The notes under the pieces are model-generated. The model saw only the letters and a program-made list of their open reading frames with translations, did not search any database and was not told the origin of the DNA. DNA of 13,894 bases from a virus (lineage: Duplodnaviria; Heunggongvirae; Uroviricota; Caudoviricetes): the IMG/VR virus record IMGVR_UViG_2645728091_000007, positions 1-13,894 of that record. One strand, written 5' to 3'. The translations under genes and the position numbers were made by a program. Numbering within the stretch: position 1 is the stretch's first letter; each line of letters starts with the position of its first letter. Below, one piece after another: positions 1 to 13,894 of this stretch.

Positions 1-1
1 C

Positions 2-1063
2 GGGGAGGAAGGAAACTACCGGATGGAAAGAGTCCCCCTAAAGCAGACTGACAGACATCACAAATCCCCGGGTGGGGATTTGTGTATAAGAGACAGACCA
101 GTAGCAGGGGAAAACATCCGCGATAATGCGCCAAATTTCCATAAATGGCTTGAACATGCTGCAAGAAAAGACCCGCGTAAGATGATGCGTATATGTGCCG
201 CGTTATACATGATTATGGCGAACCGCTACGACTGGCAGATGTTCATTGAGGCCACCGGAGACGGGGGAAGCGGTAAGAGTACATTTACCCATATTGCCAC
301 CCTGCTTGCTGGCAAACAGAACACCGTAAGCGCGGAGATGACATCACTCGATGATGCAGGAGGGCGCGCGCAGGTTGTCGGGAGTCGTCTTATCGTCCTT
401 GCCGATCAGCCGAAATATACGGGGGAAGGCACGGGCATCAAGAAAATCACGGGAGGCGATCCCGTTGAAATTAACCCGAAATATGAGAAGCGATTCACGA
501 CGATAATAAGGGCGGTGGTACTGGCAACCAATAACGACCCGATGATCTTTACCGAACGGGCCGGAGGTGTGTCACGCCGTCGGGTGATTTTCCGGTTCGA
601 CAACATTGTAAGGGAGGACGAAAAAGACAAGGAATTACCGGAAAAGATAGCGGCAGAAATCCCCGTAATTATCCGCCGCTTGCTGGCTAATTTTGCTGAC
701 CCTGAAAAGGCACGGGCTTTATTACTGGAACAGCGTGACGGTGATGAAGCTCTGGCAATAAAGCAGCAAACGGATCCGGTTGTTGAGCTTTGCGCGGCGC
801 TGGAGTTTCTGGAGGAAGCTCGTGGGCTAATGATGGGCGGTGGTGGTGACACCGTGAAGTACACGACCAGAAACAGCCTTTACCGTGTCTATATGGCCTT
901 CATGGCATACACAGGAAAGGGGAAATGTTTGAGCGTGAATGAGTTCGGAAAGGCTATGAGGTCAGCGGCGAAAGTTTACGGATATGAATATATTACGCGA
1001 AAAGTTAAGGGAGTCACGCAGACCAACGCAACGACTACTGATGATTGCGATGCGTTTTTATAA
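2..1063 (+). CDS. Primase-helicase, P4 alpha/D5 family, C-terminal portion (5'-partial; frame is open from the window edge)
   Basis: Walker A motif GDGGSGKST about 80 codons into the ORF, preceded by a D5_N-like segment (NFHKWLEHAARKDPRKMMRICAALYMI) and followed by a C-terminal region typical of P4-family primases. First in-frame ATG is at 23, but the frame is open from position 2. N-terminal primase domain is absent from the window. Confidence 0.7.
   Translation, partial: GEEGNYRMERVPLKQTDRHHKSPGGDLCIRDRPVAGENIRDNAPNFHKWLEHAARKDPRKMMRICAALYMIMANRYDWQMFIEATGDGGSGKSTFTHIATLLAGKQNTVSAEMTSLDDAGGRAQVVGSRLIVLADQPKYTGEGTGIKKITGGDPVEINPKYEKRFTTIIRAVVLATNNDPMIFTERAGGVSRRRVIFRFDNIVREDEKDKELPEKIAAEIPVIIRRLLANFADPEKARALLLEQRDGDEALAIKQQTDPVVELCAALEFLEEARGLMMGGGGDTVKYTTRNSLYRVYMAFMAYTGKGKCLSVNEFGKAMRSAAKVYGYEYITRKVKGVTQTNATTTDDCDAFL
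78..96 (-). mobile_element. Tn5/IS50-like 19-bp end sequence (element body would lie to the left)
   Basis: Reverse complement of 78-96 is CTGTCTCTTATACACAAAT. The first 16 nt equal the Tn5 mosaic end exactly; 17/19 match both the outside end (CTGACTCTTATACACAAGT) and the mosaic end. A 9-bp-stem palindrome CAAATCCCC-gggt-GGGGATTTG containing a SmaI site lies at 61-82. Confidence 0.3.
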
Positions 1064-1077
1064 AAAATGGCAATGGT

Positions 1078-1305
1078 TATCTACCTTGTCTACCTGACTG
1101 AAAGAAAATACTTTTATTTCAATGTATTAATGCAGGTAGATAACTATTTTTCACTGTCTACCTGTTATCTACCTTATCTACCCATTTTTGTAGACAGGTA
1201 AGGAGACGGGTAGAGATGAGGTAGACAGCTATTTGGGGCTGTCTACCTCCCTGAAACCCGCGCCATTACTGGCCTGATAACTAATCAGGTAGACAAGGTA
1301 GACAA
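1078..1305. repeat. Iteron cluster, about 11 copies of GGTAGACA / TGTCTACC in both orientations (putative ori or crr)
   Basis: Copies at about 1078, 1087, 1135, 1155, 1167, 1175, 1190, 1209, 1220, 1240, 1288 and 1297, including a direct tandem GGTAGACAAGGTAGACAAGG at 1288-1307. AT-rich context immediately downstream of the primase gene. Confidence 0.6.
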
Positions 1306-1352
1306 GGTGGTGGTGCACAAAAAACTTTTTAAACGAGGGGGTAAAAATAAAA

Positions 1353-1610
1353 ATGCACACATCAGGAAAACTGAACAAACATATAAAGCCACATTACCGC
1401 GCCCTTGATATGGCTGAACACTGGCTAAGGGTGGCGATTAAGGCAATAGACCGCAACGCCGGGGAAGGATACGCGAAAGCACATCCCGAACTGATAAGCG
1501 CATTCATGACAACGGCGGCTGCAAACTTTGCCACGCTGACCGAACGGGAGATTGCTGAAGCGGAGGAAGTGACAACAATCAATATTAAGTCCGGAGAGCT
1601 GGCAGCATGA
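1353..1610 (+). CDS. Hypothetical small protein (85 aa)
   Basis: ORF with a GAGGGGG Shine-Dalgarno about 12 nt upstream; its stop overlaps the SSB start (ATGA at 1607-1610), suggesting translational coupling. No family recognised. Confidence 0.5.
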   Translation: MHTSGKLNKHIKPHYRALDMAEHWLRVAIKAIDRNAGEGYAKAHPELISAFMTTAAANFATLTEREIAEAEEVTTINIKSGELAA

Positions 1611-2056
1611 CGGCGCAAATATCAGTTTACGGGCGGTTGGTGGACGACCCGCAGACAAAACAGACCAGCAAGGGCACCCCCATGACGCTGGCGCGTATGG
1701 CGGTATCACTGCCCTGCAGTCAGTCGGATGACGGTCTGGCGACGTTGTGGTTATCTGTCCTGGCGTTTGGCAGACAAGCCGACGCGCTGGCAAAGCATCA
1801 CAAAGGCGAACTCCTGAGCGTGGCGGGTAACATGCAGATGAGCCAGTGGACTGGACAGAACGGCGAAACGCGGCAGGGCTGGCAGGTTATCGCAGACAGC
1901 GTAATCAGTGCGCGATCGGTGCGACCGGGCGGCAAAAAAGGCCAACAGGGGCAGGCTACTGACGCACTGAACAGAGCAAAACAACAGGCAGATCAGCAAG
2001 GAAGCCAGCCACCAGAGGGAGATAATGAGCAATGGGGAGATGATATCCCGTTTTAA
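1607..2056 (+). CDS. ssb: Single-stranded DNA-binding protein
   Basis: N-terminal OB-fold-like region (ISVYGRLVDDPQ...), Q/G-rich linker, and C-terminal WGDDIPF matching the acidic tail of E. coli SSB (DFDDDIPF). Confidence 0.8.
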   Translation: MTAQISVYGRLVDDPQTKQTSKGTPMTLARMAVSLPCSQSDDGLATLWLSVLAFGRQADALAKHHKGELLSVAGNMQMSQWTGQNGETRQGWQVIADSVISARSVRPGGKKGQQGQATDALNRAKQQADQQGSQPPEGDNEQWGDDIPF

Positions 2057-2074
2057 ATATTGCCAATAAAAAAA

Positions 2075-2098
2075 GCCGGAAAAAATAAATTTTCCGGC
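2075..2098 (-). terminator. Stem-loop with a 9-bp perfect stem (GCCGGAAAA / TTTTCCGGC); looks like an intrinsic terminator on the minus strand
   Basis: On the minus strand the hairpin is followed by a run of 7 T (complement of the A-run at 2068-2074). On the plus strand no U-run follows. Sits in the SSB-capsid intergenic region. Confidence 0.3.
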
Positions 2099-2272
2099 AT
2101 GCTACATAAATCCCGACCAAAGGGAGTGAAGATATTAACACTAATTGTCCGCACTGAAGTTGTCACCCCAAAACTTTATACAACATTGCACTCGGTTGCA
2201 TGTGTTCGCATGACAAATATCGGTGATAGCATATATCCACAATTATTTTTAATGAATGCAAAGAGGATGCGT

Positions 2273-3313
2273 ATGGTTGATTTATATTCGCCTACTCAGC
2301 TTGTACAGGTAGTTAATGCTGTAGATGTACAAAAACAACTAAATGCGTTGTTTACCAGTTTGTTTTTTACTCGCTCGGTAATGTTTGAATCGCGCGATAT
2401 TATTCTTGATACAATCGACGATCCAAATATCCCAATTGCAGCGTTTTGTTCTCCTATGGTGGGTAGTAAAGTTTCACGTGACGAAGGGTACGAATCAAAA
2501 ACAATTCGTCCAGGCTATATGAAGCCGAAAAGCAGCATTGATCCAAATAAGTTAGCTGTGCGCCCTGCTGGTGTATCACCTGAGCAATACAATTCTTTTG
2601 GGGCGCGTAATATTAAAGTTAAACAGGCGATTGTAAATCAGGCTAAAGCTATTCGTGCACGTATTGAATGGCTTGCCGTTCAGGCAATCACAACGGGGAA
2701 AAATATCATTGAGGGCGATGGTATTGAACGTTATGAGCTGGACTGGAATATTAAACCACAAAATATCATCACTCAGTCTGGCGGTGCTGAGTGGTCAGGT
2801 AAGGATAAAGAAACTTTTGATCCAAATGATGATATTGATAGCTACGCAGAATTTAGTGAGGGCGTCACTAATATCATCATTATGGGCGGTAATGTATGGA
2901 AGAAATACCGTTCATTCAGAGCGATAAAAGAGGCTCTGGATACCCGTCGTGGTTCTAATTCCGAACTGGAAACGGCCCTTAAAGACCTTGGTGATTCGGT
3001 GAGTTTTAAAGGGTATATGGGCGATGTTGCGATTGTTGTATATAGCGGGCGTTATACCGACGAGGACGGAACTGAAAAACATTTCCTTGATCCTGATTTG
3101 ATGGTGCTTGGCAATACGGCTCTTCAGGGGATTGTCGCCTATGGAGGTATTCAGGATCCGGAGCTAATCCGAATGGGGCTGACTAAAGCCGAACTTGCAC
3201 CGAAAAACTATATTGTGCCTGGTGATCCGGCTATTGAATATGTGCAGACACATTCAGCACCACAGCCAATACCGGCCCGCATCAATCGTTTTGTTACCGT
3301 TCGCATTGGCTAA
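2273..3313 (+). CDS. Major capsid protein, lambda gpE family (divergent homolog, 346 aa)
   Basis: Similarity to lambda gpE along the full length (LFF near the N-terminus; QSGG.EWS..DK.T.DP.DDI; LDTRRGSNSELETA; GDVAIVVYSG). Start at 2273 chosen from the AAGAGG Shine-Dalgarno at 2261-2266 and alignment to gpE MSMY; the ORF track's upstream extension to 2060 has no homology. Confidence 0.8.
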   Translation: MVDLYSPTQLVQVVNAVDVQKQLNALFTSLFFTRSVMFESRDIILDTIDDPNIPIAAFCSPMVGSKVSRDEGYESKTIRPGYMKPKSSIDPNKLAVRPAGVSPEQYNSFGARNIKVKQAIVNQAKAIRARIEWLAVQAITTGKNIIEGDGIERYELDWNIKPQNIITQSGGAEWSGKDKETFDPNDDIDSYAEFSEGVTNIIIMGGNVWKKYRSFRAIKEALDTRRGSNSELETALKDLGDSVSFKGYMGDVAIVVYSGRYTDEDGTEKHFLDPDLMVLGNTALQGIVAYGGIQDPELIRMGLTKAELAPKNYIVPGDPAIEYVQTHSAPQPIPARINRFVTVRIG

Positions 3314-3322
3314 GGGGGAGCA

Positions 3323-3664
3323 ATGGCTACTCATTACACTGAACTCATGGCTGGCACTGAAGCACTGGTGACTACGCTGGGGATATTTTCAGCTAATAAA
3401 GGGGTAATTCCTGCATTTACGCCACTGATGCAGGAAGATGCAACAGGTGCACTGGTGGTATGGGATGGTTCGAGCGTAGGTAAAGCGGTTTATGTTTCCG
3501 CTGTACAAATCGACACCGCGAAAAAAACACAGGCTCAGGTCTATAAGACAGGTGTCTTAAATGTTGATGCTCTGAACTGGCCTGAGTCTGTTAAAGAACT
3601 GTCAGTAAAGGTTGCAGCGTTTGTTGGCTCAGGTATTTCTGTTCAGCCGCTGGCTCGTGTGTAA
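3323..3664 (+). CDS. Head decoration protein, lambda gpD family (113 aa)
   Basis: Alignable to lambda gpD (THY; TPLM; VVWDGS vs VAWDGT; YKTG vs YKSG; WPE; AF.G..IS). AAGGGGGAG Shine-Dalgarno directly after the capsid gene stop. Confidence 0.75.
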   Translation: MATHYTELMAGTEALVTTLGIFSANKGVIPAFTPLMQEDATGALVVWDGSSVGKAVYVSAVQIDTAKKTQAQVYKTGVLNVDALNWPESVKELSVKVAAFVGSGISVQPLARV

Positions 3665-3675
3665 AGGGGGATACA

Positions 3676-4059
3676 ATGCAGAATGATTACAATGACCTTA
3701 AGCCAATTGCCGAAATGATGTACCCGAATCCAGCTGTAGAGGAATTAAAAGCTATCGCTGACAAAATGTGTTTAAGCGAGCGCCTTGTTGATATGAATCA
3801 GGTGATGGAAATTACAACCCTGAGTCGTCGTACACTGCTAAACCTTGAGGCTAGTGGAGAGTTCCCGGAGCGTGTGCAGGTTACGGAAGGGCGTAAGGCC
3901 TGGTATTTAAGTGAAGTGATCGACTGGATAAATAATATTCCTCGCGCTTCTGAATATTGCCGCGTACCTGTCCCAAAAAAGCCAGATGCGGCGCTATGCC
4001 TCAAGATTGAGCGTGTACGCCGCAATGCACGGGATGGTCGCTATAAGCTGATTGGTTGA
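3676..4059 (+). CDS. AlpA-family (phage transcriptional regulator / excisionase-like) HTH protein with a ~40-aa N-terminal extension
   Basis: Segment MEITTLSRRTLLNLEASGEFPERVQVTEGRKAWYLSEVIDWINN resembles the AlpA/MerR-like HTH domain. Strong Shine-Dalgarno AAGGGGGAT before the ATG at 3676. Confidence 0.6.
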   Translation: MQNDYNDLKPIAEMMYPNPAVEELKAIADKMCLSERLVDMNQVMEITTLSRRTLLNLEASGEFPERVQVTEGRKAWYLSEVIDWINNIPRASEYCRVPVPKKPDAALCLKIERVRRNARDGRYKLIG

Positions 4060-4079
4060 TGAAATTAGGGCCCGCTCTG

Positions 4080-4149
4080 GCTGGCGGGTCCTTTCCGGTG
4101 ATCCAGAACGTTACGGGGCGGAAGGCGCGCGGGTTTTCGCTATTTATGA
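4080..4149 (+). other. Lambda-type cos site (cosQ/cosN-like) with a variant cohesive-end sequence
   Basis: GGCGGGTCCTTTCCGGTGATCC...GTTACG, then a 12-mer GGGCGGAAGGCG at 4116-4127 (lambda cosN is GGGCGGCGACCT), then CGCGGGTTTTCGCTATTTATGA matching the lambda left end as I recall it. Lies directly upstream of the Nu1-like gene. Confidence 0.6.
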
Positions 4150-4260
4150 GCATTTTAAGGGGACTGGTGGTGGTTTTGTTGTTCGCTGTATCTGTATGAA
4201 TAATAAGAGAAAAATACAATCAATACACCAACCTGAAACAGTAATTAAGTTGTGGTATCA

Positions 4261-4803
4261 ATGAAATTACACCTGATGAACAAAAAAAACATGGCAAAAA
4301 GTTGCCGTGTAAGCGCCACTGCGTTCGATAAGTGGGGAGTGATTCCCGTCGAGCGTAAGGGCCGTGAGGCGTTCTATGATGTTGCCAGTGTAATAGATAA
4401 TCGGGTTAACAATGCAATCAGCCAGATTACAAACGAAACGGGCGATATTGATGACGATGAACTTTTACGCGTCAGGATCAGATTACTGACAGCACAGGCA
4501 GAGGCGCAGGAGCTTAAAAACGAGCGCGAACGCGGCGACGTTATTGATACAGAGTTTTGTATGTATGTTCTTTCCAAACTGGCGAGTCAGATTTCATCTA
4601 TCATGGACAGCCTGCCGCTTACCATGCAAAGGCGCTTCCCACAGATGACTCCGGCTATGCTGGATGGACTTAAAAAGGAAGTGGCTAAAGCCTGTAATGC
4701 CAGTGCCGGCGTTGCTGACAACCTCCCACAGATACTGGCTGATTATCTGATGGAAAGTACAGGAAACGTACCGGATAAGTTGCAGCTGAATAAGGATAAG
4801 TAA
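4261..4803 (+). CDS. Terminase small subunit, lambda Nu1-like
   Basis: Similarity to lambda Nu1 in the middle and C-terminal parts (LTAQAEAQELKNERERGDVIDTEFCMYVLSKLASQISSIMDSLPLTMQRRFPQ vs lambda LTRAQADAQELKNARDSAEVVETAFCTFVLSRIAGEIASILDGLPLSVQRRFPE). N-terminal HTH region is divergent. Start is ambiguous: ATG at 4261, 4276 (best alignment to Nu1 MEVNKK) or GTG at 4252. Confidence 0.8.
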   Translation: MKLHLMNKKNMAKSCRVSATAFDKWGVIPVERKGREAFYDVASVIDNRVNNAISQITNETGDIDDDELLRVRIRLLTAQAEAQELKNERERGDVIDTEFCMYVLSKLASQISSIMDSLPLTMQRRFPQMTPAMLDGLKKEVAKACNASAGVADNLPQILADYLMESTGNVPDKLQLNKDK

Positions 4804-4814
4804 CGTAGTACGCT

Positions 4815-5090
4815 ATGACTGAATCCGAACTACTGAAAGTAATCTGCCATGCTGGTGGAGTCAGCCACCAGCATGACGAACAGACCACGCAGCCGGGCAG
4901 TGTCACCGCTGAAAATTACGCTCGTGTGGTTGCTGAGGTTATGTGGCGTGACGGTATAGAACTGAACGGACAGGATTGCTTAGTCATCCGCACCAAAGTG
5001 CTGGCTATACTGGCAGCTAGGCGGAGGCAGGGACAACGCCAGAACGTTGCATCGTACCAGTGGAAGAAGCCTGACAGACTGCGGCGATAA
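4815..5090 (+). CDS. Hypothetical protein (91 aa) in the position where a large terminase gene would be expected
   Basis: ORF only; no similarity to the lambda gpA N-terminus; weak RBS. Confidence 0.35.
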   Translation: MTESELLKVICHAGGVSHQHDEQTTQPGSVTAENYARVVAEVMWRDGIELNGQDCLVIRTKVLAILAARRRQGQRQNVASYQWKKPDRLRR

Positions 5091-5492
5091 CTCTTTGATT
5101 TTCTCGACGGCCCCAAAATGGGCCTTACCATAGCCAGCTAATAAATGAGCAAGCCTCAAAAGTGAGGTTTGTGGCCGTTTGGCCTATTCATATGCTAACT
5201 CGTTGATATTCCTGACGACGCAAATTTACGCCTTGTGGCTGGTAGTCGAATTGCAAATTTGCAACTCAACTATGAAACTACAGGTAGTTTGGGTAGTAAA
5301 AGCAACACACTGATTTTGGGGCTTCTTCGCGATACCTAATATTATGGTATCGGTGGAAGAGATATCGTTTCTCATAGGTTAGCACCGAGGGCGGAGTTCC
5401 GCCCTCATCGAAAAATTGCTTACGAGTCGTCAAAATAAATTAATCGACTGAGTATAATGATTAACTAATTGCTCGTGTTACTTCATTATACG

Positions 5493-6254
5493 TTATTTCC
5501 CATCTTTAAGGTTTAACCAAGTGTTAATTAAAAAAAGAGCCATTGAACCTGATAAATTTACTGCAAGTTCGGCATGCCTTGGGGATGGCTTAATTGATGA
5601 GCTGTTCGTTCCATGTGCATCACCGAGTTTATTACGAAGAGTACCTAACCCATTTACAACTGCAGAACAACCGCCGAGAATTTGTTTGAAGATATTTTCA
5701 GTATGTTGGTCGGCAGATAGGTTAAGTTCTTTTGAAAGAGTTTTATAAAGCTCTGACATTTCAATATTTTTATTATTATACTGAATGCCCATATCATCAA
5801 GAATGTGTTTGCAAACTGTTTCAAGAAGTGTTCTTGCGGAGGTTATCGCACCATCCGGATCTGTATGGCGCCGTTCAAGTGCTTTTATCCAAACGGCGTG
5901 GACTCCATCCTCGTTAAACTTTCTTAATACATCAGATATGTCTTCATCCGCTGGAGCTTTATTTTTCCCTTCTAGATAGTCCAGCATCGGCTGAAATGCC
6001 TTATAAATCAAATCTCTCCGGGGGGCATACTTTTCAGTCTTTTTTATAAATCCCCAAAATTCTTTTAGTGAGCGATTAGTTCTCACAAACTCTGGTAATA
6101 GCTGATGTAAAGGAGGATTTTGTAAGAAATATGTTCTTAGAAGCAAATAATCATTATTAGCTTCATCCTGGGCTCCTGTAGCTCTTGCAATTAGTATGTT
6201 TTGAAGCGCTACTGCGCGCTCTAGGTCATTTTGAAGGGTATCTATAATATTCAT
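5493..6254 (-). CDS. Abortive-infection-like protein with a C-terminal HEPN-type Rx6H motif (Abi_C-like)
   Basis: 253-aa ORF on the minus strand. C-terminal GTLRNKLGDAHG fits the HEPN Rx4-6H motif and my recollection of Abi_C-family proteins. AT-rich gene flanked by noncoding DNA, consistent with acquired cargo. Confidence 0.5.
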   Translation of the reverse strand: MNIIDTLQNDLERAVALQNILIARATGAQDEANNDYLLLRTYFLQNPPLHQLLPEFVRTNRSLKEFWGFIKKTEKYAPRRDLIYKAFQPMLDYLEGKNKAPADEDISDVLRKFNEDGVHAVWIKALERRHTDPDGAITSARTLLETVCKHILDDMGIQYNNKNIEMSELYKTLSKELNLSADQHTENIFKQILGGCSAVVNGLGTLRNKLGDAHGTNSSSIKPSPRHAELAVNLSGSMALFLINTWLNLKDGK

Positions 6255-6314
6255 AACAAATCTTTATTCACTTCATTTGTGGGTTGATAATTGAATGGTT
6301 TGTACATTGATTTC

Positions 6315-6337
6315 TGTGTATTGCAGTGTGTATTGCA
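6315..6337. repeat. Tandem direct repeat TGTGTATTGCA(G) x2 in the putative promoter region of the Abi-like gene
   Basis: TGTGTATTGCAG followed by TGTGTATTGCAA at 6315-6337, upstream of the minus-strand start at 6254. Confidence 0.3.
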
Positions 6338-6427
6338 ACATAGCCATTCAGGTAGAGATTATGCTCTATTTTTCCTCTTATATCATTCACATACTTACAC
6401 CATTGACTCATGTAACCCAAGCATGAG

Positions 6428-7204
6428 GTGAATCCGCAGATGACCCTGCGTCGCCTGCCGGATGAAGATCCGCAGAATCTGGCGGACCCGGCTTACCGCC
6501 GCCGTCGCATCATCCTGCAGAACATGCGTGACGAGGAGCTGGCCATTGCCCAGGTCGAAGAGATGCAGGCCGTTTCTGCCGTGCTTAAGGGCAAATACAC
6601 CATGACCGGTGAAGCCTTCGATCCGGTTGAGGTGGATATGGGCCGCAGTGCGGCGAATAACATCACGCAGTCCGGCGGCACGGAGTGGAGTAAGCGTGAT
6701 AAGTCCACGTATGACCCGACCGACGATATCGAAGCCTACGCGCTGAACGCCAGCGGTGTGGTGAATATCATCGTGTTTGATCCGAAAGGCTGGGCGCTGT
6801 TCCGTTCCTTCAAAGCCGTCAGGGAGAAGCTGGATACCCGTCGCGGCTCTCATTCCGAACTGGAGACAGCGGTAAAAGACCTGGGCAAAGCGGTGTCTTA
6901 TAAGGGAATGTATGGCGATGTGGCCATCGTCGTGTATTCCGGACAGTACGTGGAAAATGGTGTCAAAAAGAACTTCCTGCCGGACAACACGATGGTGCTG
7001 GGCAACACTCAGGCACGCGGTCTGCGCACCTATGGCTGCATTCAGGATGCGGACGCACAGCGCGAAGGCATTAACGCCTCTGCCCGTTACCCGAAAAACT
7101 GGGTGACCACCGGCGATCCGGCGCGTGAGTTCACCATGATTCAGTCAGCACCGCTGATGCTGCTGGCTGACCCTGATGCGTTCGTGTCCGTACAACTGGC
7201 GTAA
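6428..7204 (+). pseudogene. E: Major capsid protein gpE, 5'-truncated (C-terminal ~260 codons, lambda-like)
   Basis: Translation matches lambda gpE from about residue 82 (NPQMTLRRLPDEDPQNLADPAYRRRRI...) to the C-terminus (...FVSVQLA). In-frame upstream codons KHE are preserved but a TAA occurs at 6413-6415 and homology ends near 6410. The N-terminal ~80 codons are missing. Confidence 0.8.
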
Positions 7205-7206
7205 TC

Positions 7207-7224
7207 ATGGCCCTTCGGGGCCAT
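7207..7224 (+). other. Stem-loop ATGGCCC-TTCG-GGGCCAT after the E stop, followed by a T-rich tract
   Basis: Perfect 7-bp stem with a TTCG tetraloop; matches the E-FI intergenic hairpin of lambda as I recall it. Confidence 0.5.
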
Positions 7225-7245
7225 TTTCTCTCTGTGGAGGAGTCC

Positions 7246-7641
7246 ATGACGAAAGATGAACTGATTGCCCGTCTTCAGGTGCTGGGTGAGCAACTGAACC
7301 GTGATGTCAGCCTGACGGGGACGAAAGAAGAACTGGCGCTCCGTGTGGCAGAGCTGGAAGAGGAGCTTGATGACACGGATGACGCTGCCGGTCAGGACAC
7401 GTCTGTCAGCCCGGAAAATGCGCTGACCGGGCATGAAAATGAGGTGGTGTCAGCGCAGCCGGGTACCGTGACTGATACGGCTGATCTGGTCACGGTTGTG
7501 GCACTGGTGACGCTGCATACTGATGCACTTCACGCCACGCGGGATGAGGCTGTGGCATTTGTGCTGCCGGGAACGGCGTTCCGTGTTTCTGCCAGTGTGG
7601 CAGCCGAAATGACAGAACATGGCCTGGCCAGAATGCAATAA
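7246..7641 (+). CDS. FI: DNA packaging / head assembly protein FI
   Basis: MTKDELIARLQ...GLARMQ matches lambda gpFI. GGAGGA Shine-Dalgarno at 7236-7241. The ORF-track start at 7207 is an upstream in-frame extension. Confidence 0.85.
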   Translation: MTKDELIARLQVLGEQLNRDVSLTGTKEELALRVAELEEELDDTDDAAGQDTSVSPENALTGHENEVVSAQPGTVTDTADLVTVVALVTLHTDALHATRDEAVAFVLPGTAFRVSASVAAEMTEHGLARMQ

Positions 7642-7652
7642 CGGGAGGCGCT

Positions 7653-8006
7653 GTGGCTGATTTCGATAACCTGTTCGATGCTGCCATTGCCCGCGCCGAT
7701 GAAACGATACGCGGGTACATGGGAACGTCAGCCACCATGACATCCGGTGAGCAGTCCGGCGCAGTAATACGTGGTGTTTTTGATGACCCTGAAAATATCA
7801 GCTATGCCGGACAGGGCGTGCGTGTTGAAGGCTCCAGCCCGTCCCTGTTTGTCCGGACTGATGATGTGCGGCAGCTGCGGCGCGGCGACACGCTGACCAT
7901 CGGTGAGGAAAACTTCTGGATAGACCGGATTTCACCGGATGATGGCGGAAGCTGTCATCTCTGGCTTGGGCGTGGCGTACCGCCTGCCGTTAACCGTCGC
8001 CGCTGA
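7653..8006 (+). CDS. FII: Head-tail joining protein FII
   Basis: GTG start with GGGAGG Shine-Dalgarno; MADFDNLFDAAIARADETIRGYMG... matches lambda gpFII (117 aa). Confidence 0.9.
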   Translation: MADFDNLFDAAIARADETIRGYMGTSATMTSGEQSGAVIRGVFDDPENISYAGQGVRVEGSSPSLFVRTDDVRQLRRGDTLTIGEENFWIDRISPDDGGSCHLWLGRGVPPAVNRRR

Positions 8007-8017
8007 AAGGGGGATGT

Positions 8018-8596
8018 ATGGCCATAAAAGGTCTTGAGCAGGCCGTTGAAAACCTCAGCCGTATCAGCAAAACGGCAGTGCCCGGTGCCGCCGCAATGGC
8101 CATTAACCGCGTGGCCACAACCGCAATAAAGCAGTCGGCGTCACAGGTTGCCCGTGAGACAAAGGTACGCCGGAAACTGGTAAAGGAAAGGGCCAGGCTG
8201 AAAAGGGCCACGGTCAAAAATCCGCAGGCCAGAATCAAGGTTAACCGGGGGGATTTGCCCGTAATCAAGCTGGGGAATGCGCGGGTTGTCCTGTCCCGCC
8301 GCAGGCGTCGTAAAAAGGGGCAGCGTTCATCCCTGAAAGGTGGCGGCAGCGTGCTTGTGGTGGGAAACCGTCGTATTCCCGGCGCGTTTATTCAGCAACT
8401 GAAAAATGGCCGGTGGCATGTCATGCAGCGTGTGGCCGGGAAAAACCGTTACCCCATTGATGTGGTGAAAATCCCGATGGCGGTGCCGCTGACCACGGCG
8501 TTTAAACAGAATATTGAACAGATACGGCGTGAACGTTTGCCGAAAGAACTGGAATACGCCCTGAAACAACAACTGAGGATTGCGATAAAGCGATGA
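8018..8596 (+). CDS. Z: Tail completion protein Z
   Basis: 192 aa, MAIKGLEQAVENLSRISKTAVPGAAAMAINRVA... matches lambda gpZ. AAGGGGGAT Shine-Dalgarno. Confidence 0.9.
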   Translation: MAIKGLEQAVENLSRISKTAVPGAAAMAINRVATTAIKQSASQVARETKVRRKLVKERARLKRATVKNPQARIKVNRGDLPVIKLGNARVVLSRRRRRKKGQRSSLKGGGSVLVVGNRRIPGAFIQQLKNGRWHVMQRVAGKNRYPIDVVKIPMAVPLTTAFKQNIEQIRRERLPKELEYALKQQLRIAIKR

Positions 8597-8988
8597 AACA
8601 TACTGAACTCCGTGCAGCCGTACTGGATGCACTGGAGAAGCATGACACCGGGGCGACGCTTTTTGATGGTCGCCCCGCTGTTTTTGATGAGGCGGATTTT
8701 CCGGCAGTTGCCGTTTATCTCACCGGCGCTGAATACACGGGCGAAGAGCTGGACAGCGATACCTGGCAGGCGGAGCTGCATATCGAAGTTTTCCTGCCTG
8801 CTCAGGTGCCGGATTCAGAGCTGGATTCGTGGATGGAGTCCCGGATTTATCCGGTGATGAGCGATATCCCGGCACTGTCAGATTTGATCACCAGTATGGT
8901 GGCCAGCGGCTATGACTACCGGCGCGACGATGATGCGGGCCTGTGGAGTTCAGCCGATCTGACTTATGTCATTACCTATGAAATGTGA
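8593..8988 (+). CDS. U: Tail terminator protein U
   Basis: 131 aa, [22 protein letters not shown]... matches lambda gpU. ATGA overlap with the Z stop. Confidence 0.9.
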
Positions 8989-8995
8989 GGACGCT

Positions 8996-9736
8996 ATGCC
9001 TGTACCAAATCCTGTAATGCCGGTGAAAGGTGCCGGGACCACCCTGTGGGTTTATAAGGGGAGCGGTGACCCTTATGCGAACCCGCTTTCAGACGTTGAC
9101 TGGTCGCGTCTGGCAAAAGTTAAAGACCTGACGCCCGGCGAACTGACCGCTGAGTCCTATGACGACAGCTATCTCGATGATAAAGATGCAGACTGGACTG
9201 CGACCGGGCAGGGGCAGAAATCTGCCGGAGATACCAGCTTCACGCTGGCGTGGATGCCCGGAGAGCAGGGGCAGCAGGCGCTGCTGGCGTGGTTTAATGA
9301 AGGTGATACCCGTGCCTATAAAATCCGCTTCCCGAACGGCACGGTCGATGTGTTCCGTGGCTGGGTCAGCAGTATCGGTAAGGCGGTGACGGCGAAGGAA
9401 GTGATCACCCGCACGGTGAAAGTCACCAATGTGGGACGTCCGTCGATGGCAGAAGATCGCAGCACGGTAACAGCGGCCACCGGCATGACGGTAACGCCAG
9501 CCAGTGCTTCCGTAGTGAAAGGGCAGAGCACTACGCTGACCGTGGCATTCCAGCCGGAGGGCGTAACCGACAAGAGCTTTCGTGCGGTGTCTGCGGATAA
9601 AACAAAAGCCACCGTGTCGGTCAGTGGTATGACCATCACCGTGAACGGCGTTGCTGCAGGCAAGGTCAACATTCCGGTTGTATCCGGTAATGGTGAGTTT
9701 GCTGCGGTTGCAGAAATTACCGTCACCGCCAGTTAA
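8996..9736 (+). CDS. V: Major tail protein V
   Basis: [36 protein letters not shown]... matches lambda gpV (246 aa), including the C-terminal Ig-like region. GAGGA Shine-Dalgarno; the ORF-track start at 8966 is an upstream extension overlapping U. Confidence 0.9.
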
Positions 9737-9751
9737 TCCGGAGAGTCAGCG

Positions 9752-10174
9752 ATGTTCCTGAAAACCGAATCATTTGAACATAACGGTGTGACCGTCACGC
9801 TTTCTGAACTGTCAGCCCTGCAGCGTATTGAGCATCTTGCCTGGTTGAAAGAGCAGGAAAAAAAGGCTGAATCCAGTGGCAACCTGCAGGTGTCTGTAGA
9901 GGATCTTATCAGAGGCGGGGCGTTTCTGGTGGCGATGTCTCTGTGGCATAACCATCCGCAGAAGACAAAGCTGCCGTCCATGAATGAAGCCATTACGCAG
10001 ATTGAGCAGGAAGTGCTTACCACCTGGCCCACGGAGGCAATTGCTCAGGCTGAAAACGTGGTGTTACGTCTGTCCGGAATGTCTGAGTTTGTGGTGAATA
10101 ATGCCCCTGAACAGGCAGAGGACGCCGGGCCTGCAGAGCCTGTTTCTGCGGGAAAGTGTTCGACGGTGAGCTGA
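9752..10174 (+). CDS. G: Tail assembly chaperone G
   Basis: 140 aa, MFLKTESFEHNGVTVTLSELSALQRIEHLA... ending ...PVSAGKCSTVS as in lambda gpG. Middle region differs from lambda at several residues. Confidence 0.9.
   Translation: MFLKTESFEHNGVTVTLSELSALQRIEHLAWLKEQEKKAESSGNLQVSVEDLIRGGAFLVAMSLWHNHPQKTKLPSMNEAITQIEQEVLTTWPTEAIAQAENVVLRLSGMSEFVVNNAPEQAEDAGPAEPVSAGKCSTVS
10150..10156 (+). promoter_or_regulatory. Programmed -1 ribosomal frameshift slippery heptamer G GGA AAG (G into T frame)
   Basis: Heptamer GGGAAAG lies in the G zero frame as G-GGA-AAG near the 3' end of G. The T frame (10156-10590) is -1 relative to G and has no start codon of its own with an RBS. Confidence 0.85.
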
Positions 10175-10590
10175 GTTTTGCCCTGAAACTGGCGCGCGAG
10201 ATGGGGCGACCCGACTGGCGCGCCATGCTTGCCGGGATGTCATCCACGGAGTATGCCGACTGGCACCGCTTTTACAGTACCCATTATTTTCATGATGTTC
10301 TGCTGGATATGCACTTTTCCGGGCTGACGTACACCGTGCTCAGCCTGTTTTTCAGCGATCCGGATATGCATCCGCTGGATTTCAGTCTGCTGAACCGGCG
10401 TGAGGCTGACGAAGAGCCTGAAGATGATGTGCTGATGCAGAAAGCGGCAGGGCTTGCCGGAGGTGTCCGCTTTGGCCCGGACGGGAATGAAGTTATCCCC
10501 GCTTCCCCGGATGTGGCGGACATGACGGAGGATGACGTAATGCTGATGACAGTATCAGAAGGGATCGCAGGAGGAGTCCGGTATGGCTGA
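10156..10590 (+). CDS. T: Tail assembly protein T segment, expressed as a G-T fusion by -1 frameshifting (fusion would span 9752-10590)
   Basis: Translation FDGELSFALKLAREMGRPDWRAMLAGMSSTEYADWHRFYSTHYFHD... matches lambda gpT; frame is -1 relative to G. Confidence 0.85.
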   Translation: MFDGELSFALKLAREMGRPDWRAMLAGMSSTEYADWHRFYSTHYFHDVLLDMHFSGLTYTVLSLFFSDPDMHPLDFSLLNRREADEEPEDDVLMQKAAGLAGGVRFGPDGNEVIPASPDVADMTEDDVMLMTVSEGIAGGVRYG

Positions 10591-13144
10591 ACCGGTAGGC
10601 GATCTGGTCGTTGATTTGAGTCTGGATGCGGCCAGATTTGACGAGCAGATGGCCAGAGTCAGGCGTCATTTTTCCGGTACGGAAAGTGATGCGAAAAAAA
10701 CAGCGGCAGTCGTTGAACAGTCAATGAACCGGCAGGCGCTGGCTGCACAGAAAGCGGGGATTTCCGTCGGGCAGTATAAAGCCGCCATGCGTATGCTGCC
10801 TGCACAGTTCACCGACGTGGCCACGCAGCTTGCAGGCGGGCAAAGTCCGTGGCTGATCCTGCTGCAACAGGGGGGTCAGGTTAAGGACTCCTTCGGCGGG
10901 ATGATCCCCATGTTCAGGGGGCTTGCCGGTGCGATCACCCTGCCGATGGTGGGGGCCACCTCGCTGGCGGTGGCGACCGGTGCGCTGGCGTATGCCTGGT
11001 ATCAGGGCAACTCAACCCTGTCCGATTTCAACAAAACGCTGGTCCTTTCCGGCAATCAGGCGGGACTGACGGCAGATCGTATGCTGGTCCTGTCCAGAGC
11101 CGGGCAGGCGGCAGGGCTGACGTTTAACCAGACCAGCGAGTCACTCAGCGCACTGGTTAAGGCGGGGGTAAGCGGTGAGGCTCAGATTGCGTCCATCAGC
11201 CAGAGTGTGGCGCGTTTCTCCTCTGCATCCGGCGTGGAGGTGGACAAGGTCGCTGAAGCCTTCGGGAAGCTGACCACAGACCCGACGTCGGGGCTGACGG
11301 CGATGGCACGCCAGTTCCATAACGTGACGGCGGAGCAGATTGCGTATGTTGCTCAGTTGCAGCGTTCCGGCGATGAAGCCGGGGCATTGCAGGCGGCGAA
11401 CGAGGCCGCAACGAAAGGGTTTGATGACCAGACCCGCCGCCTGAAAGAGAACATGGGCACGCTGGAGACCTGGGCAGACAGGACTGCGCGGGCATTCAAA
11501 TCCATGTGGGATGCGGTGCTGGATATTGGTCGTCCTGATACCGCGCAGGAGATGCTGATTAAGGCAGAGGCTGCGTTTAAGAAAGCAGACGACATCTGGA
11601 ATCTGCGCAAGGATGATTATTTTGTTAACGATGAAGCGCGGGCGCGTTACTGGGATGATCGTGAAAAGGCCCGTCTTGCGCTTGAAGCCGCCCGAAAGAA
11701 GGCTGAGCAGCAGACTCAACAGGACAAAAATGCGCAGCAGCAGAGCGATACCGAAGCGTCACGGCTGAAATATACCGAAGAGGCGCAGAAGGCTTACGAA
11801 CGGCTGCAGACGCCGCTGGAGAAATATACCGCCCGTCAGGAAGAACTGAACAAGGCACTGAAAGACGGGAAAATCCTGCAGGCGGATTACAACACGCTGA
11901 TGGCGGCGGCGAAAAAGGATTATGAAGCGACGCTGAAAAAGCCGAAACAGTCCGGCGTGAAGGTGTCTGCGGGCGATCGTCAGGAAGACAGTGCTCATGC
12001 TGCCCTGCTGACGCTTCAGGCAGAACTCCGGACGCTGGAGAAGCATGCCGGAGCAAATGAGAAAATCAGCCAGCAGCGCCGGGATTTGTGGAAGGCGGAG
12101 AGTCAGTTCGCGGTACTGGAGGAGGCGGCGCAACGTCGCCAGCTGTCTGCACAGGAGAAATCCCTGCTGGCGCATAAAGATGAGACGCTGGAGTACAAAC
12201 GCCAGCTGGCTGCACTTGGCGACAAGGTTACGTATCAGGAGCGCCTGAACGCGCTGGCGCAGCAGGCGGATAAATTCGCACAGCAGCAACGGGCAAAACG
12301 GGCCGCCATTGATGCGAAAAGCCGGGGGCTGACTGACCGGCAGGCAGAACGGGAAGCCACGGAACAGCGCCTGAAGGAACAGTATGGCGATAATCCGCTG
12401 GCGCTGAATAACGTCATGTCAGAGCAGAAAAAGACCTGGGCGGCTGAAGACCAGCTTCGCGGGAACTGGATGGCAGGCCTGAAGTCCGGCTGGAGTGAGT
12501 GGGAAGAGAGCGCCACGGACAGTATGTCGCAGGTAAAAAGTGCTGCCACGCAGACCTTTGATGGTATTGCACAGAATATGGCGGCGATGCTGACCGGCAG
12601 TGAGCAGAACTGGCGCAGCTTCACCCGTTCCGTGCTGTCCATGATGACAGAAATTCTGCTTAAGCAGGCAATGGTGGGGATTGTCGGGAGTATCGGCAGC
12701 GCCATTGGCGGGGCTGTTGGTGGCGGCGCATCCGCGTCAGGCGGTACAGCCATTCAGGCCGCTGCGGCGAAATTCCATTTTGCAACCGGAGGATTTACGG
12801 GAACCGGCGGCAAATATGAGCCAGCGGGGATTGTTCACCGTGGTGAGTTTGTCTTCACGAAGGAGGCAACCAGCCGGATTGGCGTGGGGAATCTTTACCG
12901 GCTGATGCGCGGCTATGCCACCGGCGGTTATGTCGGTACACCGGGCAGCATGGCAGACAGCCGGTCGCAGGCGTCCGGGACGTTTGAGCAGAATAACCAT
13001 GTGGTGATTAACAACGACGGCACGAACGGGCAGATAGGTCCGGCTGCTCTGAAGGCGGTGTATGACATGGCCCGCAAGGGTGCCCGTGATGAAATTCAGA
13101 CACAGATGCGTGATGGTGGCCTGTTCTCCGGAGGTGGACGATGA
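10583..13144 (+). CDS. H: Tail tape measure protein H
   Basis: 853 aa, MAEPVGDLVVDLSLDAARFDEQMARVRRHF... matches lambda gpH in length and sequence. AGGAGGA Shine-Dalgarno. Confidence 0.95.
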   Translation: MAEPVGDLVVDLSLDAARFDEQMARVRRHFSGTESDAKKTAAVVEQSMNRQALAAQKAGISVGQYKAAMRMLPAQFTDVATQLAGGQSPWLILLQQGGQVKDSFGGMIPMFRGLAGAITLPMVGATSLAVATGALAYAWYQGNSTLSDFNKTLVLSGNQAGLTADRMLVLSRAGQAAGLTFNQTSESLSALVKAGVSGEAQIASISQSVARFSSASGVEVDKVAEAFGKLTTDPTSGLTAMARQFHNVTAEQIAYVAQLQRSGDEAGALQAANEAATKGFDDQTRRLKENMGTLETWADRTARAFKSMWDAVLDIGRPDTAQEMLIKAEAAFKKADDIWNLRKDDYFVNDEARARYWDDREKARLALEAARKKAEQQTQQDKNAQQQSDTEASRLKYTEEAQKAYERLQTPLEKYTARQEELNKALKDGKILQADYNTLMAAAKKDYEATLKKPKQSGVKVSAGDRQEDSAHAALLTLQAELRTLEKHAGANEKISQQRRDLWKAESQFAVLEEAAQRRQLSAQEKSLLAHKDETLEYKRQLAALGDKVTYQERLNALAQQADKFAQQQRAKRAAIDAKSRGLTDRQAEREATEQRLKEQYGDNPLALNNVMSEQKKTWAAEDQLRGNWMAGLKSGWSEWEESATDSMSQVKSAATQTFDGIAQNMAAMLTGSEQNWRSFTRSVLSMMTEILLKQAMVGIVGSIGSAIGGAVGGGASASGGTAIQAAAAKFHFATGGFTGTGGKYEPAGIVHRGEFVFTKEATSRIGVGNLYRLMRGYATGGYVGTPGSMADSRSQASGTFEQNNHVVINNDGTNGQIGPAALKAVYDMARKGARDEIQTQMRDGGLFSGGGR

Positions 13145-13470
13145 AGACCTTCCGCTGGAAAGTGAAACCCGGTATGGATGTGGCTTCGGTCCCTTCTGTA
13201 AGAAAGGTGCGCTTTGGTGATGGCTATTCTCAGCGAGCGCCTGCCGGGCTGAATGCCAACCTGAAAACGTACAGCGTGACGCTTTCTGTCCCCCGTGAGG
13301 AGGCCACGGTACTGGAGTCGTTTCTGGAAGAGCACGGGGGCTGGAAAGCCTTTCTGTGGACGCCGCCTTATGAGTGGCGGCAGATAAAGGTGACCTGCGC
13401 AAAATGGTCGTCGCGGGTCAGTATGTTGCGTGTTGAGTTCAGCGCAGAGTTTGAACAGGTGGTGAACTGA
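13141..13470 (+). CDS. M: Tail tip assembly protein M
   Basis: 109 aa, MKTFRWKVKPGMDVASVPSVRKVRFGDGYSQRAPAGLNANLK... matches lambda gpM. ATGA overlap with the H stop. Confidence 0.9.
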   Translation: MKTFRWKVKPGMDVASVPSVRKVRFGDGYSQRAPAGLNANLKTYSVTLSVPREEATVLESFLEEHGGWKAFLWTPPYEWRQIKVTCAKWSSRVSMLRVEFSAEFEQVVN

Positions 13471-13894
13471 TGCAGGATATCCGGCAGGAAACACTGAATG
13501 AATGCACCCGTGCGGAGCAGTCTGCCAGCGTGGTGCTCTGGGAAATCGACCTGACAGAGGTCGGTGGAGAACGTTATTTTTTCTGTAATGAGCAGAACGA
13601 AAAAGGTGAGCCGGTCACCTGGCAGGGGCGACAGTATCAGCCGTATCCCATTCAGGGGAGCGGTTTTGAACTGAATGGCAAAGGCACCAGTACGCGCCCC
13701 ACGCTGACGGTTTCTAACCTGTACGGTATGGTCACCGGGATGGCGGAAGATCTGCAGAGTCTGGTCGGCGGAACGGTGGTCCGGCGTAAGGTTTACGCCC
13801 GTTTTCTGGATGCGGTGAACTTCGTCAACGGAAACAGTTACGCCGATCCGGAGCAGGAGGTGATCAGCCGCTGGCGCATTGAGCAGTGCAGCGA
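13470..13894 (+). CDS. L: Tail tip protein L (3'-partial; runs off the window end)
   Basis: ATG at 13470 overlaps the M stop by 1 nt. Translation MQDIRQETLNECTRAEQSASVVLWEIDLTEVGGERYFFCNEQNEKGEP... matches the lambda gpL N-terminus. Not in the ORF track because no stop is reached. Confidence 0.9.
   Translation, partial: MQDIRQETLNECTRAEQSASVVLWEIDLTEVGGERYFFCNEQNEKGEPVTWQGRQYQPYPIQGSGFELNGKGTSTRPTLTVSNLYGMVTGMAEDLQSLVGGTVVRRKVYARFLDAVNFVNGNSYADPEQEVISRWRIEQCS

Follow-up and report, generated by a model that had tools for sequence, protein, structure and literature searches.

How does a piece of DNA that carries a cos site and a gene for a small terminase subunit (TerS), but no gene for a large one (TerL), come to be packaged, and by whose enzyme? 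The question is raised by positions 4086-4803 of a stretch of caudoviral DNA of 13,894 nucleotides (positions 1 to 13,894 of IMG/VR record IMGVR_UViG_2645728091_000007), which we analysed as a whole and refer to as the window. A sequence-only reading of this DNA had proposed that TerS plus cos without TerL marks the module of a phage satellite, or phage-inducible chromosomal island (PICI), and our analysis bears this out: there are PICI genes in the window, its relatives have an integrase and att repeats in a phage gene E, and the whole belongs to a published family of helper-embedded PICIs (HE-PICIs). We conclude that 4086-4803 is probably the packaging module of an HE-PICI of about 11 kb, which would supply its own cos and TerS and use the TerL of its helper on the satellite cosN. 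That TerS is one of five core PICI components and redirects packaging is recognised in SatelliteFinder (PMC10085698), and homologues of terS in some Gram-negative PICIs were noted by Fillol-Salom et al. 2018. The coordinates of all features are collected in Table 1.

The element and its helper

The element is a helper-embedded PICI, E:Phage_cap_E:80, inserted at codon 80 of a lambda-like gene E; E:Phage_cap_E:80 is the HE-PICI site of Tommasini, Mageeney and Williams 2023, with 201 elements mapped (PMC10111431). The window starts inside the primase gene and holds the replication zone (primase and single-strand DNA-binding protein, SSB) together with the late zone (major capsid protein, MCP; decoration protein; AlpA; cos; terS), and the other PICI zones are seen in relatives, from which the integrase and attL at the left end are also known. 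In Escherichia coli STEC711 the region matching window 1400-13894 is 98% identical and lies inside a lambda-like prophage next to bio, where the order is Nu1, TerL, W, portal, protease, D, codons 1-82 of E, an insert of 11.1 kb, codons 80-341 of E and then the tail genes. The first gene of the insert encodes a tyrosine integrase and the last is an Abi gene, and the same arrangement recurs in WP8-S17-ESBL-12 and NRG857c. On alignment the junctions share an att core, (A)ACCCAAGCA, and the attR of the window, with its flank, is identical to the published attR of E_Phage_cap_E_80 elements; E residues 80-341 are annotated in relatives as a partial gene without an N-terminus. For the type element, Eco567.11capE of NRG857c, measurements have shown the composite to excise precisely, to replicate and then to lose the satellite by an excision that restores E (PMC10111431). 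The same satellite backbone is also found alone on the chromosome, at phoQ in O157:H7, at phoQ in CFT073 (where it is EcCICFT073) and at a tRNA-Pro gene in ATCC 25922.

The helper is, in its terminase, essentially phage lambda: its TerL is 99.4-99.8% identical to lambda gpA, and the helper prophage has a lambda-type cos and a Nu1 of its own. The sequence-only reading had named TerL, portal and protease genes in the flanks as the mark of an ordinary mosaic prophage. An intact set is indeed present in the relatives, where Nu1, TerL, portal and protease lie 1-6 kb upstream of the left end of the satellite in the same late operon, but these packaging genes belong to the interrupted helper and not to the satellite, and the element is therefore not an ordinary mosaic prophage. 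Within the satellite no such genes were detected: tblastn with lambda gpA, gpB, gpC and gpW gave nothing (E>1) in either the window or the complete satellite of a relative.

The cos site and a candidate binding site for TerS

The earlier proposal depended on homology between 4110-4149 and known cos sites, and this homology was found by alignment over a longer interval, 4084-4156, which is 83-90% identical (E 1e-18 to 9e-13) to the cos regions of lambda, HK629/630, DE3 and many lambdoid phages, the match taking in the 'cos site' annotated in phage DE3. From the start of the cosQ sequence GGGTCCT to the first cohesive-end base (4116) is exactly 30 nt, the spacing of lambda, and cosQ with its flank (4086-4104) is invariant in the nine PICI cos sites compared. 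The nick flank GTTACG is present at 4110-4115, the flanks and left half of cosN are identical to lambda, and the block CGCGGGTTTTCGCTATTTATGAG at 4128-4150, an I2-like region, is conserved. The cohesive end itself (4116-4127) reads GGGCGGAAGGCG in the window as against GGGCGGCGACCT in lambda, a difference at 5 of 12 positions, and it differs at the same five from the resident helper prophage of relatives. The window contains one match to a 35-nt cosQ-cosN pattern, and 200 shuffles contain none. By its sequence, 4086-4150 is a lambda-type cosQ-cosN-I2 with exact lambda spacing.

The cohesive end varies among near relatives, being GGGCGGAAGGCG in the window and GGGCGTCAGGCG in STEC711 and NRG857c (loci L001, about 20715-20726, and L006), while chromosomal PICIs, Enterobacter HE-PICIs and helpers have the lambda sequence GGGCGGCGACCT. 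Since the cohesive ends differ between satellite and helper, no mutual annealing would be expected in the E. coli E:80 lineage. We considered and rejected the notion that embedded satellites in general have a variant cohesive end, since the lambda sequence is what the Enterobacter-type HE-PICIs carry.

Downstream of 4150 the similarity to lambda ends, as judged by alignment with lambda, N15 and the resident prophage, and neither alignment nor a repeat search found lambda R3, the integration host factor (IHF) site I1, R2 or R1 beyond this point. A search of 4040-4900 for R-like repeats, or for a remote second site of the N15 kind, returned only short pairs at chance level. When terS elements of E. 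coli are compared with those of the Enterobacter type, whose TerS proteins are 60% identical to theirs overall and 73% in the DNA-binding domain, GGTGGTGGT(K)TTGTT(R)TT at 4166-4183 is the sole block conserved past the I2-like region; it is 18 nt long and occurs once in the window. Counted from the cohesive end it occupies bp 51-68, which is the R3 position of both lambda (bp 50-65) and N15 (bp 48-60; PMC9026076), and the core GTTGTT is common to this block and the N15 R3 region. We regard 4166-4183 as a candidate TerS binding site, equivalent to R3.

So understood, the satellite cosB resembles that of N15, having one R3-type site and neither an IHF site nor R2 or R1, and differs from it in that the remote second site of N15 was not found for the satellite in the window. 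The TerS of N15 acts on a single R3, whereas lambda TerS needs R3 plus R2 and cannot package N15 DNA (PMC9026076). A single-site cosB would thus be poorly served by the TerS of a lambda-type helper, and this would explain why the satellite has an N15-like TerS of its own.

A complete small terminase of the Nu1 family

The gene that follows cos encodes a Nu1-like TerS, as had been proposed: Pfam PF07471 (Phage_Nu1) matches at E=1e-24, scoring 87.4 bits where the cut-off is 30, and PHROG 57 ('terminase small subunit') aligns with residues 2-174 of the 180 at E=9e-53. Its start is likely to be the ATG at 4261 and not the GTG at 4252, given the RefSeq call in relatives and the alignment of the family. 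The protein is 35% identical to lambda Nu1 over 178 amino acids. Among 50,697 phage records the closest phage TerS is gp1 of N15, at 47% identity and with none higher, and in every case the matching phage gene is followed by TerL; in N15 too, gp1 is followed by the phage's own TerL.

Similarity to lambda Nu1 is unevenly spread along the protein. Identity is 29-35% in the DNA-binding domain (residues 1-68 in lambda numbering), depending on the alignment, 37% in the linker (69-99) and 51-54% in the self-assembly region (100-140), the most lambda-like part; it falls to 29% in the C-terminal 41 residues, the least lambda-like part, after which there is an extension of 13 residues. In lambda it is the C-terminal 41 residues of Nu1 that bind gpA. 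The sequence-only reading had the C-terminus lambda-like and the N-terminus divergent, which is the wrong way round: the C-terminus has departed furthest, and the DNA-binding domain is N15-like and the most constrained part. This domain is 56% identical to that of N15, shares an identical AFDKWG recognition-helix motif with it, is unlike that of the resident lambda-type helper, and is almost invariant within the satellite TerS family. No part of the protein evolves faster in this family than the C-terminus, which exists in several variants; only P156 and Y162 are invariant across the satellite family, lambda and N15. By comparison, the C-terminal domain of N15 gp1 is 80% identical to that of lambda, against 32% for the satellite, and the lambda domain is also 32% identical to that of a phage-21-type TerS (CFT073 prophage 4), the lambda and phage-21 terminase classes being subunit-specific (PMC9026076). 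The length of the satellite domain is right for a TerL-binding domain of the Nu1 type, and we treat it as putatively such.

Selection has acted in the same pattern. The ratio of non-synonymous to synonymous substitution rates (dN/dS) between the window terS and copies in chromosomal PICIs is 0.10-0.13, and against the O157 PICI copy the value for the whole gene is 0.13, that for the DNA-binding domain 0.04, for the middle 0.12 and for the C-terminal domain 0.34. A search of the PDB with the single TerS sequence gave nothing at E<=1, and a family profile aligned residues 6-47 with the lambda TerS domains 6hn7_B, 1j9i and 7lw0, the profile itself having contained lambda. To judge from these alignments and rates, the satellite TerS is a full-length Nu1 homologue, intact and under purifying selection, and its family keeps DNA recognition fixed while varying the C-terminus.

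The neighbouring gene and the exchange of the cassette

The open reading frame (ORF) after terS, at 4815-5090, had been described as an unrelated 91-amino-acid protein in the place of TerL, and this is so: it shows no similarity to gpA and belongs to PHROG 1561, and the missing TerL neighbour is what marks the satellite copy of terS. Its product is 61% identical to the homologue in the O157 PICI and 56% to that in EcCICFT073. In this PICI family a PHROG 1561 protein comes after both terS and rppA, and it may be a further packaging or interference factor. That it might be an N-terminal fragment or decoy of TerL was considered and rejected, since it has no similarity to gpA and also accompanies rpp-type modules.

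In every satellite element compared, terS comes directly downstream of cos and no TerL gene comes after it, and the order cos, cosB block, terS is conserved across genera. Of 5426 complete E. coli genomes, 694 (about 13%) carry a terS homologue with a nucleotide identity of 80% or more. The cos-terS cassette also occurs in ordinary chromosomal PICIs and, beyond E. coli, in Enterobacter/Citrobacter, Kosakonia and Superficieibacter elements, and two distinct satellite backbones, each with a lambda-type helper, encode one and the same TerS protein. Among species-representative genomes a strict 69-nt cos-cosB pattern had no matches and a looser pattern had two (Kosakonia and Superficieibacter), both with the same cassette and too few for statistics.

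The slot downstream of cosN is occupied in three ways in elements that are otherwise syntenic, and the type of cosB matches the protein in the slot. The first variant is a lambda-type R3-I1-R2-R1 with no TerS (NRG857c 11capE); the second is a PICI cosB with rppA (EcCICFT073, locus L010, 21660-22094); the third is the GGTGGTGGT..GTTGTT cosB with terS, seen at ten loci including the window. Members of the terS type are the window, STEC711, WP8-S17-ESBL-12 and the O157 and ATCC 25922 PICIs, and further members are four HE-PICIs of the Enterobacter/Citrobacter type and the Kosakonia and Superficieibacter elements. In the terS-type cosB (4166-4176) there is a (GGT)n run at bp 51-59, and in the rpp-type cosB of EcCICFT073 (L010, about 21545-21560) there is CACCACCACCAC, the reverse complement of (GGT)n, at a similar distance from cosN; this likeness may be chance or may reflect an inverted related site.

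The first variant allows the window to be compared with the type element of its own insertion site. Eco567.11capE shares with the window the site, the attR core and flank, and the orientation in the helper late operon, and its gpE-like, gpD-like and AlpA-like proteins match those of the window at 99-100% identity. It was reported without terS and with a 258-bp cos region 90% identical to that of the helper (PMC10111431); our check of NRG857c agreed with this, showing a lambda-like R3-I1-R2-R1 and no more than about 13 codons like those of Nu1, joined to unrelated sequence. The window, by contrast, has another cosB, a full TerS and the 91-amino-acid gene, and the cargo also differs, being HEPN plus DUF262 there and Abi in the window.

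Analogues in other satellites

The combination described here has analogues in satellites of other kinds. The order int, alpA, pri, capsid, terS is canonical for PICIs and is shared with the element in the window. The TerS of Staphylococcus aureus pathogenicity islands (SaPIs; TerS-SP, pac-type) is alike in that the satellite provides its own TerS for its own packaging site and borrows the TerL of the helper. It differs in serving headful (pac) packaging by phages of Gram-positive hosts and in being unrelated in sequence to Nu1; it also works with Ppi, which blocks the phage TerS, whereas the system in the window is cos-type and no Ppi-like function was identified. The capsid-forming PICIs (cf-PICIs) likewise encode capsid proteins and TerS, but they also encode TerL, HNH, portal, protease and head-tail connectors, none of which is present here.

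How helper TerL might be recruited

In proposing a mechanism we need to account for a TerS that retains every region of Nu1 and yet differs most from lambda where lambda Nu1 binds TerL. Upon induction of the helper, and excision and replication of the satellite, the satellite TerS would bind the satellite cosB at 4166-4183 and place the helper TerL on the cosN of the satellite (4116-4127), which would lead to satellite concatemers being cut and packaged into heads built by the helper, or in part by the satellite. Packaging of the satellite would thereby be independent of the cosB specificity of the helper. With units of 11.1 kb, a head of lambda size would be filled by about four, unless the gpE and gpD homologues alter the size of the head; filling by multimers was proposed earlier for EcCICFT073. 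TerL could be recruited directly, through the C-terminal domain of the satellite TerS, or indirectly, through mixed oligomers with helper Nu1, and we weigh these two routes about equally; the C-terminus is not lambda-like, and so the mode of recruitment is something we infer. A more novel reading, possible though somewhat less likely than not, is that the terS cassette embodies a third way of packaging for cos PICIs, in which a complete N15-like TerS reads a single-site cosB and recruits lambda-type TerL without helper Nu1, and that at one locus this cassette can be exchanged either for rpp and its cosB or for the plain cosB of a helper.

Several points weigh against such a mechanism. Rpp is the only packaging mechanism of E. 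coli PICIs to have been tested by experiment. The cohesive end departs from that of lambda at five of its 12 positions, and its cutting by lambda TerL is a prediction; the candidate R3 comes from footprinting over two divergent groups only. The putative TerL-binding C-terminus is as far from lambda as is the phage-21 type, yet the helpers seen are lambda-type, and its closest phage counterpart, at 51%, is that of PhiR5_1 Nu1, which belongs to a rarer type of terminase. An AlphaFold2 model built with 24 family members was too poor to use, with a mean predicted local distance difference test score (pLDDT) of 55.5, a predicted template-modelling score (pTM) of 0.31, and pLDDT below 50 in the region of residues 6-47. 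Finally, virions of the type HE-PICI or of its helper were not recovered by its discoverers (PMC10111431).

Of the other explanations, the one that survives best is that the satellite TerS acts in the manner of Rpp, co-assembling with helper Nu1 into hetero-oligomers that carry satellite DNA-binding domains and helper C-termini, with helper Nu1 as the essential bridge and with inhibition of helper packaging; we think this possible, though on the doubtful side. It draws strength from EcCICFT073, where rppA fills exactly this slot in a syntenic order (MCP, decoration protein, small protein, cos, the slot gene, and a gene of 91-93 codons), with a lambda-like cosQ/cosN and a PICI-specific cosB that lacks R2, R1 and an IHF site, and where RppA, which has at its N-terminus a winged helix-turn-helix (wHTH) domain of the TerS type, works through a heterocomplex with TerS (PMC6739421, PMC9026076). 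The middle, self-assembly region of the satellite TerS being the part most like lambda Nu1, and its C-terminal domain being so remote from that of its lambda-type helpers, would also suit a mixed oligomer. Against this, Rpp proteins are 139-154 amino acids long, lack the middle and TerL-binding C-terminal regions of TerS and need the TerS of the helper, whereas the window TerS is a complete Nu1 homologue of 180 amino acids. BLASTP finds no similarity between TerS and RppA (E=6.3), RppA matches the TerS family profile only over the wHTH (residues 7-47) while the window TerS matches it end to end, and a search of the PDB with the TerS-family profile did not find RppC at E<=10. The EcCICFT073 cosB also differs in sequence from that of the window. 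Moreover, the satellite TerS keeps a C-terminal domain of the right length, with P156 and Y162 in place and a dN/dS of 0.34, and the dimer interface of the lambda DNA-binding domain, I11-F12-G13, is replaced in it by S-C-R.

A second alternative, which we judge unlikely, is that the C-terminal domain is tuned to another helper with a TerL like that of PhiR5_1, so that the satellite would be poorly served, or a non-working passenger, with lambda-type helpers and would owe its mobilisation mainly to other phages. Over the C-terminal 41 residues, identity to PhiR5_1 Nu1 is 51%, compared with 29-32% for lambda, N15 and the phage-21 type; the TerL of PhiR5_1 is only 65% identical to gpA, with 34 of 60 N-terminal residues the same; and rapid evolution of the C-terminus into several variants would be in keeping with such tuning. 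Yet a terminase of the PhiR5_1 type is present in 38 of 5426 complete E. coli genomes as against 694 with terS, which is not decisive; the identical TerS is found with lambda-type helpers in two distinct backbones, and 51% identity is still no close match. In PhiR5_1 itself (locus L017, 2096-4544) the C-terminal domain of Nu1 is 41% identical to that of lambda, and its terminase may represent a further class of TerS-TerL specificity.

It is much less likely that terS and cos are a non-functional remnant of 'late gene capture' from a phage. The late zones of PICIs are dynamic and do capture helper late genes (PMC10111431), and the type element keeps only its 13 or so Nu1 codons, but in the window the ORF is intact with a dN/dS of 0.10-0.13, the order of cos, cosB block and terS holds across genera, and no close phage donor is known, the best phage match being 47%. 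Least credible of all is an ordinary mosaic lambdoid prophage that owns cos-terS along with the TerL, portal and protease close by. Immediately upstream in relatives there are indeed Nu1, TerL, W, portal, protease and D, with tail genes downstream on the same strand, but gene E is cut at codon 80 and its fragments flank an 11-kb insert with a tyrosine integrase and a 10-bp att core, the prophage possesses a lambda-type cos and a Nu1 of its own, the insert of the type element was measured to excise precisely and restore E, and the same backbone stands alone next to phoQ and a tRNA-Pro gene.

Other features of the window

Table 1. Features of the window, with strand and the basis of each assignment.
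Feature	Position	Strand	Basis
Satellite primase/helicase, C-terminal part, replication zone	23-1063	+	Pfam DUF5906 E=3e-10, Pox_D5 E=3e-4; cut by window start
Satellite single-strand DNA-binding protein	1607-2056	+	Pfam SSB E=2e-15
Satellite gpE-like major capsid protein homologue	2273-3313	+	Pfam Phage_cap_E E=8e-41; 41% identity to full-length lambda gpE
Satellite gpD-like head decoration protein	3323-3664	+	Pfam HDPD E=4.5e-15; 38% identity to lambda gpD
Second AlpA-type HTH (helix-turn-helix) protein, just upstream of cos	3676-4059	+	Pfam Phage_AlpA E=8e-9; PHROG 2790 E=1e-49
cosQ (core GGGTCCT 4086-4092) and conserved flank	4086-4104	+	Alignment with lambda, N15 and resident helper prophage
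cosN cohesive end GGGCGGAAGGCG	4116-4127	+	Alignment; flanks 4110-4115 and 4128-4150 conserved
Candidate TerS binding site GGTGGTGGTTTTGTTGTT (R3 equivalent)	4166-4183	+	bp 51-68 from cohesive end; cross-group conservation
Satellite small terminase, Nu1 family, 180 aa	4261-4803	+	N15-like wHTH, conserved middle, divergent C-terminal domain
91-aa conserved protein, PHROG 1561	4815-5090	+	PHROG 1561 E=2e-45
Cargo: abortive-infection protein (Abi_C / AbiJ-like)	5493-6254	-	Pfam Abi_C E=1e-23; PADLOC AbiJ E=2e-21
attR core AACCCAAGCA, right end of satellite	6414-6423	+	Alignment with lambda E and a relative's attL
3' part of helper prophage gene E, residues 80-341 (262 codons)	6416-7204	+	97.7% identity to lambda gpE 80-341
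Helper prophage FI, FII, Z, U, V, G, T, H, M (head completion and tail, lambda-like)	7207-13894	+	ORF list, relatives' annotation

The primase/helicase is annotated in relatives as 'DNA primase family protein', and a small ORF lies between its end at 1063 and the start of the SSB gene at 1607. Positions 1-1400, the C-terminal region of the primase, are unlike relatives that are 95-99% identical over 1400-13894, and this mismatch indicates that the replication module is mosaic; contiguous from base 1, the window is found in no complete RefSeq E. coli genome. The start of the gpE-like gene was set according to the RefSeq annotation of relatives. A gap of about 200 nt separates the end of the late-zone AlpA-type gene (4059) from the Nu1-family gene (4261). 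This AlpA-type protein (3676-4059) is conserved at 68-72% in HE-PICIs from other genera, and chromosomal PICIs (O157, ATCC 25922 and CFT073) have an unrelated protein of 137 amino acids at the same position.

Between the packaging module and attR sits the Abi gene, in a slot that is occupied by HEPN plus DUF262 in NRG857c and by FRG plus DUF3892 in Enterobacter-type relatives; WP8-S17-ESBL-12 has an additional TIR gene after the integrase. The cargo slot looks like a hotspot for defence genes. On the helper side, the genes FI-FII-Z-U-V-G-T-H-M are intact in the window. There are no tRNA genes in the window, and a scan of its sequence for promoters and terminators did no better than with shuffles.

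Significance

PICIs with TerS, and helper-embedded PICIs at this very site, are already published. What remains of interest is the Nu1-type TerS of cos PICIs, the mismatch between its C-terminus and the lambda-type TerL of its own helper, and the three-way exchange of the cassette. In the literature searched we found no functional study of a Nu1-type TerS of cos PICIs, nor any report of one slot being occupied in three ways, by terS with its cosB, by rpp with its cosB, or by a cosB of the helper type and no protein. The cassette, which is common in E. coli, travels with anti-phage cargo, for example genes of the Abi, TIR and HEPN kinds. The way in which lambda TerL is engaged by a TerS whose C-terminal domain is not of the lambda kind bears on a long-standing problem, the positioning of TerL at cosN by TerS, and, since the helpers are essentially phage lambda, the question is amenable to standard lambda genetics. 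If the cassette does represent a third way of packaging, these natural swaps would define which minimal determinants give the lambda system its TerS-cosB and TerS-TerL specificity.

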